Shown: positions 26,399-43,869 of the stretch, one piece after another
How the letters are laid out: every line of letters begins with the position of its first letter
Position numbering within the stretch: the first letter of the stretch is position 1
Notes under the pieces: model-generated
Database searches by the model: none
Told to the model about the DNA's origin: nothing
What the model saw: the letters and a program-made list of their open reading frames with translations, nothing else
Virus record (IMG/VR): IMGVR_UViG_2529292698_000003
Length of the DNA: 64,000 bases
Reading direction: 5' to 3' (one strand)
Source of the DNA: a virus
Program-made: the position numbers and the translations under genes

Positions 26399-27271
26399 TT
26401 AAACTTTAACTTCTCTCCCAGCGGTACGTTTAAGATCGTCAAGCATTGATTTTGGAAGTTTATATTCTTCTTTTGCTTTCTTTAAATAAGCATCTACTTT
26501 AGGTTTATCATCTTTGTACTTTTTAATGAATTTAACTCCTAAATTAAATTTTTCTTTCTTTTCTTCTGGTGTTGATGATACTGTTTTAACTATATCGTCT
26601 TTTTCTCCATCTTTAACTGCTTCTTTATCTTCAGAATCCATTCCAGATAATTTTCCAGCGGGGCGTCCTCGTTTACCTGTTGATGCTTTTTTAGTTGGTT
26701 TATTAGGATCTGCCTTTCTTCCTCTTTTACCCACTGTTCTTTCTCCTTTGGTTAAAGCAATAAATTTATTTAATTGATTATCATATAAAGTATCTCCTTC
26801 TAAAGCATCTTCTACAGCATCATTAGCTCTAATTGCTTTTTTAAGTGCCAACCCTGTTAAATCAGGATTATCATTGATTACTTTTTCAATAGATGATTTC
26901 AAATCACCTTTAATTTTTGCCATTTCATTTAATTGCTCTTCTTCTATTGAAGAACCACGAGATGTTTCTGTGGTAGAATATTTTTCATTTAACCCTCTAA
27001 TATCTCTAGCAGCATTTACAATAGCATCGTTATAGTTAACAGCTTGACCTAAAGCTTCTACATCATCAATCTCATCCTTGGTGAGTTTGTTGAGAGCATT
27101 TATAAATTGGAGTGCATTTTCTACGCTAGTGTTCCCATAGTCTTCATATTTTGAAATATCCCCGGCATATTTAAGGAGGGTATCTATAGAAACAGACACA
27201 TTTGTATTCATTTCTTTTAATGCATAAGAAATTTCTTCACGTATAATTTCAAGTAAACGAGTCTTTTTCAT
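26399..27271 (-). CDS. Putative internal head protein with AT-hook-like motifs
   Basis: Leader MKKTRLLEIIREEISYALKE; GKRGRKA and GKRGRPAG motifs; late motif at 27287. Confidence 0.55.
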   Translation of the reverse strand: MKKTRLLEIIREEISYALKEMNTNVSVSIDTLLKYAGDISKYEDYGNTSVENALQFINALNKLTKDEIDDVEALGQAVNYNDAIVNAARDIRGLNEKYSTTETSRGSSIEEEQLNEMAKIKGDLKSSIEKVINDNPDLTGLALKKAIRANDAVEDALEGDTLYDNQLNKFIALTKGERTVGKRGRKADPNKPTKKASTGKRGRPAGKLSGMDSEDKEAVKDGEKDDIVKTVSSTPEEKKEKFNLGVKFIKKYKDDKPKVDAYLKKAKEEYKLPKSMLDDLKRTAGREVKV

Positions 27272-27294
27272 TTATATATTTTTATTTATAAATA

Positions 27295-27825
27295 TTAAGG
27301 AAAAAGTGTTTGTTTAACTTTTTGTATTCTTTCCTCGGTAGTGCCCGATATTTTAATGAGATTAGGGATTTTTGAATTATATTTGATTAATAACTTTTGA
27401 ATCTCATTATCAATCTTTATTCTATAATTAGCATCGGTTTCACGAACTCCATTATCCTCTATTTCAACTCCTTCAGGTGAAACATAAAAAATATAATCAT
27501 ATTCACGTAGTAAATGTGAAGCTGCTTCATTCAAAGTATCACATATAAAATATGATATTGAATGAGAGGATATAGTAAATGCCATCACATCAATTACTGT
27601 ACGATCTGTAATTACGTTTTCTAAATATAATTCACTTGAACGTTCAGCTAAAAATACAAATTGACCTTTTAATGTTGAGTCAGTATTTAAGGGAATCCCT
27701 AAATCACGTAAATATTTTGAACGTTCAGTTCGAAATTCATAACCTGAAAATTCAGGTAATTCTTTTAAAGCATTAACTAAGGTAGTTTTACCTACTGAAA
27801 TTGTACCGCAAAAACCTATTTTCAT
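27295..27825 (-). CDS. NadR/AAA_28-type P-loop nucleotide kinase
   Basis: MKIGFCGTISVGKTT, ITDRTVIDVMAF, YDYIFYV, IEDNGVRETD, ISGTTEERI. Confidence 0.8.
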   Translation of the reverse strand: MKIGFCGTISVGKTTLVNALKELPEFSGYEFRTERSKYLRDLGIPLNTDSTLKGQFVFLAERSSELYLENVITDRTVIDVMAFTISSHSISYFICDTLNEAASHLLREYDYIFYVSPEGVEIEDNGVRETDANYRIKIDNEIQKLLIKYNSKIPNLIKISGTTEERIQKVKQTLFP

Positions 27826-42973: not shown

Positions 42974-43073
42974 CTATTTCATGATTTTGTTTTAGTGATG
43001 TTTTTATTACTTCAAAATGACCTGAAGTAGGTGGTTTGAATCCACCCCCACATACTGCAATTATTTTAGCCAT
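42966..43073 (-). pseudogene. 35-aa truncated duplicate of the nucleotidyltransferase N-terminus (not in ORF track)
   Basis: MAKIIAVCGGGFKPPTSGHFEVIKTSLKQNHEIDE*, versus polyprotein ITAFYGGGFKPPTKGHFAVVKKSLEQFPDID; overlaps both neighbours by 8 nt. Confidence 0.8.
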
Positions 43074-43869
43074 TTATAAATGATGTTATTTTTGATTGTG
43101 CCTCTTCTTTAGACACTGAATTGTCAATGATATTTTTTACCTTATCAGAATTTAAGAAATCTTGAATTTCAGCATTTAACTTTTGAGCTTTTGCTTTACT
43201 ACGAGCTTTTTCTTTATCTGTTTTAGGTTTAGCATCTGTTGGTTTAAAGGGTTCAATGTAAGTTTTTAGAATTTTTTCTACATCTTTCATTGTCTCACTG
43301 TCACCTGTGTTAGCTACAGAAACAAAATTATCACCAAACATTTGTTGGTATGTATCGAAATTTTTAGACACATCAATCCAAGTTCTGTATACAGCGCTTG
43401 GCATTAAACTTCTATCTTCACCACCACTTTTCTCGAAACGTTTTTCGTTGCGCTTTAGAGACGTTTCAAGATGCGTATAAACGTATAACATCATTATATC
43501 ATATCCAGCTGCCTCTAATTGATCAACTAATAGTTTTGTTTGTTTAGCTGATGCTGCTGTTCCGTCTAAAATAAATGAATCTTTATTAGCGATTGCTGTA
43601 GGGATTTGTTCTTTTTTAAGTTTTTTAGTTGCTGCAGACATTGCCTTCATAAAAGCACTTCTGTTTTCAGCATCTGTAGCTTTTTGGTTTAATGAAAATT
43701 TTTCAACTTTTGCTAAAGCTAAAATAGTATCATCTAAATTGAACACTTTTAATCCCGATAAATCCAAATCACCCAAGATAGAACCCTTACCAGCACCCGG
43801 GGCGCCAGCAAGGATTATAGCTTTGGGTTTATTTTGTACTTCTTTTAAAAGTTGAATTAAGCTTATCAT
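43066..43869 (-). CDS. Zeta-toxin/AAA_33-like P-loop kinase
   Basis: AIILAGAPGAGKG, FILDGTAA, GYDIMMLYVYTHLETSLKRNEKR...R; late motif at 43873. Confidence 0.8.
   Translation of the reverse strand: MISLIQLLKEVQNKPKAIILAGAPGAGKGSILGDLDLSGLKVFNLDDTILALAKVEKFSLNQKATDAENRSAFMKAMSAATKKLKKEQIPTAIANKDSFILDGTAASAKQTKLLVDQLEAAGYDIMMLYVYTHLETSLKRNEKRFEKSGGEDRSLMPSAVYRTWIDVSKNFDTYQQMFGDNFVSVANTGDSETMKDVEKILKTYIEPFKPTDAKPKTDKEKARSKAKAQKLNAEIQDFLNSDKVKNIIDNSVSKEEAQSKITSFING

Follow-up and report, generated by a model that had tools for sequence, protein, structure and literature searches.

Portable leader peptides beside the head module of an uncultured T4-like phage: candidate tags for prohead loading

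Ten genes or gene junctions, at 26.4-43.9 kb of a 64,000-nucleotide stretch of phage DNA (the whole of which is called the window here), bear one of three short peptides: family A (consensus MDNFDLRKYL.E), family B (M..L..LI.E) and family M (EEFRRMQKLAG). These tags are portable, since the same bodies carry different leaders in different phages and one leader heads many unrelated bodies. On balance, they are probably modular tags that load proteins into the prohead and are then clipped off. A prohead address followed by clipping is supported indirectly by the presence of a gp21-type (S77) protease, by the [L/I]-x-E with which the leaders end exactly at the limit of their conservation, by the equivalence of the M tag to the C-terminal tail of the scaffold-like protein, and by the clustering of tagged genes by the head module; loading and clipping are well-motivated suggestions.

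The phage and its tagged genes

The window belongs to an uncultured T4-like phage of aquatic Bacteroidota, the nearest isolate being Flavobacterium phage immuto. It contains the head set of a T4-like myophage, with a gp21-type (S77) prohead protease, a gp23 capsid protein and a gp20 portal, and the DNA of its head region had no similarity match in a set of 50,697 phage records. The protease (18355..18963, minus strand; Pfam Peptidase_S77, 2.6e-32; phrog_207, 2.6e-60) is 37% identical to T4 gp21 (E 2e-23), and its start, MNKPLLIE, resembles the MNEPQLLIE of gp21. The major capsid protein (15208..16887, minus strand; Pfam Gp23, 6.3e-75, matching from residue 78) has a T4-like N-terminal propeptide containing LLE, LLE, ILE and VTE sites. 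The gp22 position, by protease-scaffold-capsid protein synteny, is held by an acidic, coiled-coil, scaffold-like protein of 419 aa (16909..18168, minus strand), which has a weak profile match to T4 gp22 (E 0.0076) and no match in Pfam or PHROG. A promoter-like motif, ATATTTATAA, occurs 17 times in the window against 2.4 expected, every time on the coding strand. It sits 5' of the sheath, portal and further structural genes, and the first genes of three operons in the tagged block have it too; the tagged genes, clustered beside the head module, share this motif with structural genes.

All leader peptides cited in an earlier note on this DNA were found where it had placed them, on the minus strand. 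Its statement that unrelated proteins have a common A start was borne out by all-against-all short BLAST of the 66 window ORFs, comparing starts with bodies: the starts align at E 4e-5 to 1e-3, and the bodies do not. The A-led genes encode a 209-aa protein (29934..30563, minus strand; leader MDNFDLRNFLYNNTLLNE at 30510-30563) whose C-terminal end consists of Gly-rich hydrophobic helices, a 146-aa protein with a Cys-rich body (30815..31255, minus strand; leader MDNFDLRKYLTEGKLYE at 31205-31255), homologous to phage proteins labelled 'high potential iron-sulfur protein' by their depositors, and an acidic 177-aa protein (36285..36818, minus strand; leader MKDNFDLKKFLTE...YLKE at 36741-36818; promoter-like motif at 36831-36840). 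The second of these starts reads MDNFDLRKYLTE, its ATG falling within a longer GTG-started frame, and as reported earlier its first 23 nt are identical to those of the gene at 30563. The tag list of the earlier note was real, and the set proved larger than claimed: the list omits family M, represented by MKTQILSEEFRRMQKLAGLITE (29793-29858) at the head of a 176-aa gene (29328..29858, minus strand).

The family B peptides at 27271, 31730, 32625 and 43869, together with two internal copies, are likewise present. They lead a 290-aa protein (26399..27271, minus strand; leader MKKTRLLEIIREEISYALKE at 27212-27271; promoter-like motif at 27286-27295), a two-module protein of 157 aa (31257..31730, minus strand; leader MDRLKKIIQEILSE at 31689-31730; weak DUF5872 and phrog_727 match) with a second, internal B element KLKDIIREILQE at 31479-31514, a 297-aa protein with a CxCGC motif (31732..32625, minus strand; leader MERLRKLIKEVLS at 32587-32625), and a 267-aa P-loop kinase of the Zeta-toxin/AAA_33 type (43066..43869, minus strand; leader MISLIQLLKE at 43840-43869; promoter-like motif at 43872-43881; Pfam Zeta_toxin, 3.4e-17). 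The other internal copy, MKNTTLKEIIKEEIFNILK (33999-34055), is the joint between the hydrophobic N-part and the C-part of a 323-aa ORF (33756..34727, minus strand), and this C-part matches the beginning of the protein encoded at 26399-27271 (E 8e-5). The description of the block as a cluster of tagged genes holds for part of its content, as only about half of its genes bear any leader; the leaderless genes include two enzymes. Block proteins compared with Pfam and PHROGs had almost no matches besides the kinase.

The B pattern is loose, and in a proteome rich in Lys, Glu, Ile and Leu it could be a mere accident of composition; the large terminase fits it too, and the likeness of B to the N-terminus of the scaffold-like protein is weak. 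The positional clustering of the pattern leads us to reject this reading as scarcely credible. The loose form h..hh.E, beginning in the first 10 residues, is present in 6/66 window ORFs against 1.4% per ORF expected from its internal frequency (binomial p 3.5e-4), with 4/17 ORFs matching in the block and 2/49 outside it (Fisher p 0.034). The two outside matches are the large terminase, probably by chance, and a gene at 58508. In the complete 155-kb relative G006, tags are carried by 12 of the 29 ORFs just upstream of terminase and by 2 of the 193 elsewhere (p 1.8e-10), and B swaps with A and M on the same bodies.

Portability of the tags among relatives

In uncultured relatives, A leads 149 distinct proteins that form 101 unrelated body clusters, 77 of them singletons, and M leads 74 distinct proteins, of which the 73 clustered gave 44 body clusters. 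The strict A pattern retrieves only one gene per large genome, and the pattern counts therefore understate the families. A-profile matches are N-terminal in 180/193 cases; the tags are also found as internal joints of fused proteins and occasionally at C-termini.

From one phage to another, orthologous bodies are found with an A, B or M leader or with none. Among distinct (de-duplicated) relatives' sequences, the kinase body is led by B in 20, by A in three (L183, L107, L173) and by another start in one, and the body of 30815..31255 by A in 10, by B in 10 and by another start in one. For the 36285..36818 body the counts are A 10, M 5, B 1 and other 2; for 26399..27271, B 14 and other or none 7; for 31257..31730, B 24, A 1 (L089) and other 5; and for 31732..32625, B 17, A 1 and none or other 31, many of these beginning directly at the Cys motif. 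A-led homologues exist for 14 M-led proteins, and the A-led 29934..30563 body has an M-led homologue (L226; 46% identity over 178 aa, E 8e-45). The earlier note had proposed a leader-profile scan of related genomes for shuffling of tags and passengers, and shuffling was found; the opposite arrangement, a leader always tied to one body and integral to its fold, clearly fails across relatives.

Pfam matched about four of 145 A-led proteins (six families in all, four of them kinase-type with two members each); if the tags are loading signals, this points to many candidate effectors of takeover or anti-defence. Of the A-led bodies, 82% are acidic, like T4 gp67 and the scaffold. This would fit transient core proteins, and suggests an alternative in which the tags would indeed lead to the prohead, yet as labels of auxiliary core or scaffold parts, which, like T4 gp67, gp68 and gp22, would be cut up and expelled on maturation instead of being delivered. 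The small B-led proteins encoded between the portal and protease genes, in relatives as in immuto, and the further [LI]xE sites within bodies, point the same way. However, more than 100 unrelated bodies and a set of enzymes (the kinase; fused SOD-, ART-like and nucleotidase modules) would make poor structural filler, and the strong variability of the content recalls the polymorphic internal-protein loci of T-even phages, described in the literature as the home of injected anti-restriction proteins. We regard the expelled-core alternative as unlikely and retain delivery of the tagged proteins as the preferred reading.

The cleavage junction and the scaffold tail

Homology among bodies begins directly after a conserved [L/I]-x-E, which is the cleavage motif of T4 gp21 (ITE, LTE and LIE in the literature sections consulted). 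The 10-residue T4 capsid-targeting sequence (CTS) ends in IAE, and T4 ipII and ipIII begin MKTYQEFIAE (NC_000866). In family A the first LxE is fixed by the search pattern used; a second [LI]xE, whose Glu falls at residues 15-27, is present in 128/146 A-led proteins against 13% expected, and conservation of the leader ends there. Among M leaders, 69/74 have an [LI]xE no more than 12 residues past LAG, and the 30815..31255 body invariably has Glu17 where it joins its A or B leader. Cleavage after this Glu is assumed for the S77 enzyme of the window phage on the rule established for T4.

Third-codon positions of 147 leaders vary as the background does, and on this codon evidence selection on the leaders acts at the peptide level. 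Conserved gene starts could instead act as nucleic acid, in the form of translation-initiation regions or recombination cassettes, or could mark a single fast-diverging paralogous family. In T4-type phages, mobile promoter cassettes shuffle genes, and the identical 23-nt start of the two adjacent A genes and the tandem arrays of tagged genes might be read in that sense. Such readings are very improbable, and the codon evidence is the ground on which the nucleic-acid-level one is rejected; against them stand also the occurrence of the M peptide at protein C-termini and internal joints, and the swapping of leaders on bodies of recognisable fold, such as the kinase.

A link to the head is provided by the M tag. 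The scaffold-like protein ends in a tail, EANDAFSRMREIAFYSAKH (16912-16968), that carries a diverged M motif after I-I-E. The motif lies at the extreme C-terminus in 48/48 unique homologues of this protein, and in 45/48 an [LIV]xE leaves a tail of 10-18 aa. Alignment of the M-leader profile with the scaffold profile by hhalign matched this tail (Prob 96%, E 2.5e-9). Within the window the two are not identical: the scaffold tail reads FSRMREIAFY and the M leader FRRMQKLAG. The N-terminus of the same protein, MATNRDLLKE, is B-like and aligns weakly with family B (E 0.036, Prob 1.4%). Derivation of A from a scaffold helix, LEELDLEELLSE, was unsupported (hhalign E 0.2), and an A-profile scan of all ORFs gave no copy in any head protein. 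M is thus the one family for which sequence comparison demonstrates a head-protein counterpart. By analogy with 80alpha, P22 and herpesviruses, the scaffold-like tail may bind capsid protein, a property not known of T4 gp22.

A different account would have the tags serve in docking or regulation away from the capsid, with a timed-degradation signal, a hub protein of the host or a shared chaperone as candidates; the resemblance to the scaffold tail would then come from a common partner, e.g. the protease. It draws on the fact that short N-terminal amphipathic helices are often generic interaction motifs, on the lack of an A counterpart in head proteins, and on the absence of the leader in some orthologues. 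It is made quite improbable by the constant position of M at the scaffold C-terminus, the protease-type motif that ends all tag classes, the adjoining head module, and the distribution of the tags. Among the 50,697 phage records, the M-leader peptide was found in four immuto records only (E 7e-6), the A-leader query gave a marginal match only (E 9), to the same four records, and an S77 protease is present in 9/10 large tag-bearing records (4/5 A-bearing and 5/5 M-bearing). An address in the prohead thus remains the favoured function.

A candidate route into the prohead and its known counterparts

In the proposed mechanism, tagged proteins would be made late in infection along with the head proteins, and each tag would attach its protein to the scaffold core during assembly or to the inside of the capsid, the M tag occupying the site of the scaffold's own C-terminal tail, of which it would be a copy. 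The shell would close round the docked proteins, and the gp21-type protease would then cut behind the Glu of each tag's terminal [L/I]-x-E, as it would cut the scaffold about 15 residues from its C-terminus, freeing the body inside the head for ejection with the DNA. A, B and M would be functionally equivalent and exchanged via recombination at the cleavage junction, with tag elements persisting as joints in fused multi-module proteins. Binding, packaging, cleavage and ejection are steps that we infer from the sequences.

More tentatively, and with a little less than even confidence, we suggest that a widespread clade of ~155-170 kb T4-like phages of aquatic Bacteroidota uses a set of three or four clip-off tags that can replace one another, at least one of them copied from the scaffold's capsid-binding tail, and with these loads the head for injection with mostly acidic proteins of well over a hundred families and with whole enzymes and enzyme polyproteins, making the capsid a general effector-delivery device. 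If so, the payload of such capsids could be deduced directly from sequence; should the tags prove to be loading signals, the same would hold for the proteins injected by an abundant group of environmental phages. The copied scaffold tail would give a concrete and testable explanation of how capsids select the proteins they carry, and short natural tags with built-in release sites would serve for loading phage capsids with proteins.

The closest counterpart is the T4 CTS, carried by IPI-III and Alt and removed by gp21. In both cases a short N-terminal peptide ending in [L/I]-x-E heads otherwise unrelated proteins in the presence of a gp21-family protease. The T-even internal proteins are diverse, with the CTS alone conserved, and the CTS has been viewed, in the sections of the literature consulted, as perhaps an evolutionary device for packaging various proteins. 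The earlier note saw an echo of this sequence in the window. The echo can be upheld for family B in general form and for a 550-aa head-module protein just upstream of the protease (18963..20615, minus strand; leader MKTLQDQYKLIKE at 20577-20615), both with leaders of T4 size and shape; A and M do not resemble it in sequence. The 20615 leader is conserved in the relatives listed (49 matches, not de-duplicated), the N-termini shown being mostly MK[ST]LQ..Y.LIKEGKG. Since A and M are unlike MKTYQEFIAE by eye, and B has only its length and hydrophobic spacing, the tags are judged not to be homologues of the T4 CTS, but may work like it. T4 has a single class of tag, whereas at least three interchangeable classes occur here. 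The length of A and M, 17-26 residues, exceeds that of the T4 sequence, A has two sites, and one tag is a copy of the tail at the scaffold's C-terminus. The passengers sampled here, at least 101 + 44 body clusters, make for a far larger system, in which fusion joints and, occasionally, C-termini also carry tags; the hosts are Bacteroidota.

Several other counterparts are taken from the relevant sections of sources on head-protein processing, targeting and scaffolds (PMC3012670, PMC5694885, PMC9026906, PMC5644958, PMC4498786). In herpesviruses, the pUL26 protease enters the procapsid via the capsid-protein-binding C-terminal tail of the scaffold, shared with pUL26.5, and an M-site cut near the C-terminus frees the scaffold from the capsid protein (PMC4498786), much as the phage scaffold-like protein has its [LIV]xE about 15 residues from the end. 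In that system, nested in-frame genes share the tail, with a single passenger and a different cleavage motif, whereas the tag here is portable. In phiKZ and SPN3US, a gp21-related protease processes head proteins at x-x-E, and paralogues have identical N-terminal 15 residues (PMC5694885); the propeptides there are long and protein-specific, and the sections consulted describe no swappable tag families or scaffold-tail copy.

In phage 80alpha, the scaffold C-terminus binds coat protein and CpmB of SaPI1 copies its helix-and-hook tail, according to the sections consulted, so that there, as with M, a passenger carries the terminal peptide of a scaffolding protein. CpmB is a single hijacker that changes capsid size, whereas in the present case the copy is borne by the phage's own proteins, dozens of them and unrelated to one another, mostly at the N-terminus and with a protease site after it; in sequence the two systems are unrelated. 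Encapsulins and engineered P22 offer a further parallel, in which a short terminal peptide or scaffold fragment guides cargo of any kind into a shell of the HK97 fold. The tag of an encapsulin usually lies at the C-terminus, stays on the cargo and is a feature of cellular compartments, and P22 scaffold-fusion cargo is man-made; by contrast, the present tags are mostly N-terminal, precede a protease site and occur in a tailed phage. Literature searches turned up no description of an interchangeable-tag system and no paper with the string MQKLAG. Virion proteomics, N-terminal sequencing or binding data for this phage, immuto or any relative did not come up in these searches, and the immuto papers listed announce no virion proteomics in their titles or the openings of their abstracts.

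Two further loci bear on the extent of the families. A 111-aa gene in the baseplate module (58173..58508, minus strand) has a B-like start, MKTSIFKKLIKE, and its membership in family B is uncertain; its protein had no match among the relatives' loci compared, and a G006 protein with a closely similar start (40006-40356) adjoins a baseplate gene on its upstream side. The presumably late operon of the tagged block encodes a 1856-aa multi-enzyme protein (37403..42973, minus strand) with SOD domains and three internal DPFGLN.YA units; this unit was rejected as a start tag, being internal in 6/6 cases. The joining of modules at tag or cleavage elements would explain the long multi-enzyme proteins of these phages. 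Modules of the 1856-aa protein are found as separate B-led genes in relatives, and a G006 gene (65002-65640) that starts with MIKLIDILNEVLSE is 78% identical to part of it.

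Leader exchange between bodies

The short leaders, or tags, fall into three classes, A (MDNFDLRKYL.E), B (M..L..LI.E) and M (EEFRRMQKLAG), each followed by a protein part referred to here as the body. Every A and B leader peptide quoted in the earlier note was read from the window at its position, and the 23-nt starts of two adjacent A genes are identical as it described. In short BLAST comparisons within the window, three sets of sequences matched while their bodies did not: the A starts of all three genes (E 4e-5 to 1e-3), the B starts at 31730 and 32625 (E 0.003), and an element inside 33756-34727 paired with the beginning of 26399-27271 (E 8e-5). 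The third family, M, was outside the earlier list and is represented by MKTQILSEEFRRMQKLAGLITE at 29858; it recurs on different bodies in other relatives and in the closest isolate, Flavobacterium phage vB_FspM_immuto (hereafter immuto; 58.9% capsid protein identity). The family B pattern h..hh.E starts within the first ten residues of 6/66 ORFs, versus 1.4% expected (p 3.5e-4), with 4/17 ORFs in the tag-rich block (26.4-43.9 kb) versus 2/49 outside it. The two outside are the terminase (24103-25683) and a baseplate-module gene at 58508, whose membership of family B is uncertain. The terminase N-terminus, MSQDIKKILKEE, matches the loose B pattern, probably by chance, since its Glu is not kept in immuto or in the complete relative G006. 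About half of the block genes are leaderless, including those for an FAD-type dehydrogenase, a small P-loop kinase, and proteins of 376, 358, 188 and 158 aa.

Sequence searches bear out the portability of the tags. At least 120 IMG/VR stretches matched a degenerate DNA pattern encoding M-[DEKN]-[ND]-F-[DN]-L-[KR]-K-[FY]-L-x-E, and the matches listed contain 155 complete A-led ORFs, only nine of them with an in-frame upstream ATG. Together with the window's three, the distinct A-led proteins among the matches listed number 149, and fall into 101 body clusters (BLASTP, E<1e-3), 77 of them singletons. The corresponding search for F-[KR]-R-M-Q-K-L-A-G matched 107 stretches and gave 74 distinct proteins with an N-terminal M tag, 73 of which form 44 clusters. 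About four of 145 A-led proteins matched Pfam (two Zeta-type kinases, one DUF5872 and one weak capsid-like match); four kinase-type Pfam families have two A-led members apiece, presumably the same two proteins.

Leader classes were also compared among de-duplicated relatives of bodies that the window encodes on its minus strand. Relatives of the kinase body (43066-43869) carry B in 20 cases, A in three, M in none, and another leader or none in one; the corresponding counts are 24, 1, 0 and 5 for 31257-31730, 10, 10, 0 and 1 for 30815-31255, 1, 10, 5 and 2 for 36285-36818, and 17, 1, 0 and 31 for 31732-32625. Many orthologues of this last body are leaderless, which counts against the tag reading. 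The A-led 29934-30563 has an M-led homologue (46% identity, E 8e-45), A-led homologues are known for 14 M-led proteins, and in the alignment of a 146-aa family a 6-residue B leader replaces the 14-residue A leader before an invariant [LI]-x-Glu17. Because leader classes are exchanged on orthologous bodies, the tags are not each bound to one body as part of its fold, and the portability proposed earlier holds. Compound tags also occur in relatives, with A and M in tandem (L289, 3415+), B at the start and M at the extreme C-terminus (L237, 2027-), or M at the start and a B-like element further inside (L217, 1565+).

The leader peptide and its boundary

Selection acts on the leader peptide. Synonymous codon choice in 147 distinct leaders is similar to that of the bodies (Asp GAT 0.76-0.86 vs 0.82; Lys AAA 0.85-0.95 vs 0.88; Tyr TAT 0.74 vs 0.68). 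The A profile gave 193 matches, 180 of them N-terminal, and most of the other 13 lie after a Met or at fused-protein joints. In A, the L-x-E at residues 10-12 follows from the search pattern itself; 128/146 A-led proteins, versus 13% expected, have a further [LI]-x-E whose Glu falls between residues 15 and 27 (peaking at 17, 18 and 24), and column conservation in the A-led alignment ends there. For M, an [LI]-x-E lies no more than 12 residues past LAG in 69/74 leaders. Judged from the sequences, [L/I]-x-E, a site of the protease type, is the boundary of the leader. The T4 gp21 sites given in the literature are ITE, LTE and LIE, and the ten-residue T4 capsid-targeting sequence (CTS), read from ipII and ipIII, ends in IAE.

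Tagged genes in a T4-like genome

By its predicted proteins, the window virus is a T4-like myophage. Its 66 non-nested ORFs of at least 50 aa all lie on the minus strand, and encode a major capsid protein of the gp23 family (15208-16887, Pfam 6.3e-75), a T4-type portal (22193-24076, Pfam 6e-69), a prohead protease of the T4 gp21 family (18355-18963, Pfam Peptidase_S77 2.6e-32), and a remaining structural set of terminase, two sheath paralogues, and baseplate and fibre genes. The protease is 37% identical to T4 gp21 and starts MNKPLLIE, compared with MNEPQLLIE in T4. The sheath paralogues are in tandem (1252-2961 and 3001-4719), with 57% identity over 568 aligned columns. The head region had no DNA-level match among 50,697 phage records. 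Terminase relatives are encoded on at least 593 IMG/VR stretches (69-94% identity in the best 80 of these), which points to an abundant uncultured aquatic clade. A 10-mer, ATATTTATAA, has 17 copies in the window versus 2.4 expected, every copy on the coding strand, and none of 100 shuffles reached 17. Copies precede genes for sheath, portal, fibre and baseplate proteins and, in the block, those at 27271, 36818 and 43869 (sites include 24094-24103, 27286-27295, 36831-36840 and 43872-43881), and the motif is a candidate late promoter. It differs from the T4 counterpart, TATAAATA.

Tagged genes cluster at the head module. Those of the window are found between the terminase and the head of the kinase operon (43869), in addition to the head protein at 20615. 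Between the terminase and the block, two small overlapping ORFs with hydrophobic N-terminal segments (25687-26389) may encode lysis or membrane proteins. In G006 (154.8 kb, 222 ORFs), 12 of the 29 ORFs lying up to 20 kb upstream of the terminase are tagged versus 2/193 elsewhere (Fisher p 1.8e-10). Those two encode a head protein at the gp67/68 position and a protein whose start resembles that of 58508 and whose gene adjoins a baseplate gene. No A tag was found in the complete G006, suggesting that lineages favour different tag classes. In immuto, small A- and B-led genes lie within the head module, in the protease-scaffold and the portal-protease intervals. The tags co-occur with the S77 protease, which is present in 5/5 large M-bearing and 4/5 large A-bearing records, the exception being a 65%-complete fragment. 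Among the 50,697 phage records, the M-leader peptide matched none but the four immuto records (E 7e-6), and these also gave the sole match, a marginal one (E 9), to the A-leader query.

In G006, part of the window's 1856-aa polyprotein (37403-42973) is encoded as a gene of its own with a B leader (78% identity); like the B elements inside proteins at 31479-31514 and 33999-34055, this fits tags that double as joints of fused proteins. The polyprotein contains SOD domains and three DPFGLN.YA..L units, which are internal without exception, in relatives too (6/6); immuto has the nucleotidase as a separate gene. Without its leader, the Cys-rich 146-aa body (30815-31255) has homologues in unrelated phages, labelled by their depositors 'high potential iron-sulfur protein'; in one case, Actinomycetia phage DSL-LC01, the gene for the homologue (OQ999401.1 63051-63785) immediately precedes that for the capsid maturation protease. 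The 231-aa head-module protein (20612-21307) and the N-terminal region of the capsid protein share S-T-S-x-G-G-x-x-F/Y-x-x-G-x-G-A-Q-Y/W-A (E 0.03), and four relatives (L055, L056, L070 and L167) have the S-T-S-x-G-G motif in B-led proteins of 73-82 aa whose genes lie between those for portal and protease.

The M tag and the tail of a putative scaffold

The M pattern also occurs at the extreme C-terminus of 15 distinct proteins, 13 of which start like or align with the window's scaffold-like protein (16909-18168), placed at the gp22 position between capsid protein and protease; the other two are an L255 protein with a scaffold-type tail and another start, and the B-led L237 protein. All 48 distinct full-length scaffold-like homologues end in [RKH]-[MFW]-[QKR]-x-[LI]-A-[GF], typically ...ESNDVFKRMQKLAGII, and in 45 of them an [LIV]-x-E leaves a tail of 10-18 residues (mode 15). 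The window protein's own tail is a diverged EANDAFSRMREIAFYSAKH; it differs from the window's M tag, another point against the tag reading. When the M-leader profile was aligned with that of the scaffold-like family, exactly the C-terminal tail was hit (Prob 96%, E 2.5e-9), and the alignments identify the M tag with the tail of this family. The family is gp22-like in position and make-up, with no match in Pfam or PHROG and a weak profile match to T4 gp22 at K-[DN]-LTESQK (E 0.0076).

The earlier note had read the leaders as portable tags that load passengers into the prohead and are then clipped off. This is supported in part: the sequences show leader exchange, selection on the peptide, the [L/I]-x-E junction, the match of M to the scaffold-like tail, the joint occurrence of tags and S77 and the grouping of tagged genes beside the head module, and docking, packaging, cleavage and ejection of the tagged proteins we infer. 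The best explanation, and a fairly probable one, is that a capsid-targeting system of the T4 kind has diversified into several clip-off tags that can replace one another. Such a system would act as the T4 CTS and the polymorphic internal-protein loci of T-even phages do, although in sequence neither A nor M is related to the CTS. In a less probable rival, the tagged bodies would be core proteins of the prohead, present only for a time and not delivered as cargo; the acidity of 82% of A-led bodies fits this rival too and counts against the main reading. By analogy with phage 80alpha and herpesvirus scaffolds, the M tag would seat its passenger at the site of the scaffold tail, and a single cut would then release it. 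The 80alpha capsid protein is bound by the last 16 scaffold residues, which SaPI1 CpmB copies, and the herpesvirus capsid protein binds the scaffold C-terminus, shared with the protease precursor, until a cut near the end frees the scaffold (PMC4498786). The likeness to CpmB and the herpesvirus protease is one of principle only, whereas here many passengers copy the scaffold tail. A literature search, limited to main articles, found no published description of the A, B or M tags.

Only for M was a counterpart found in a head protein, which also counts against the tag reading. Family B aligned weakly with the scaffold N-terminus (MATNRDLLKE..., E 0.036), and A was rejected as a copy of a scaffold helix, its alignment to the acidic LEELDLEELL motif reaching only E 0.2. 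In the window's scaffold-like protein, residues ~210-294 form an ~85-residue insertion, where most of the 47 aligned relatives have a gap.
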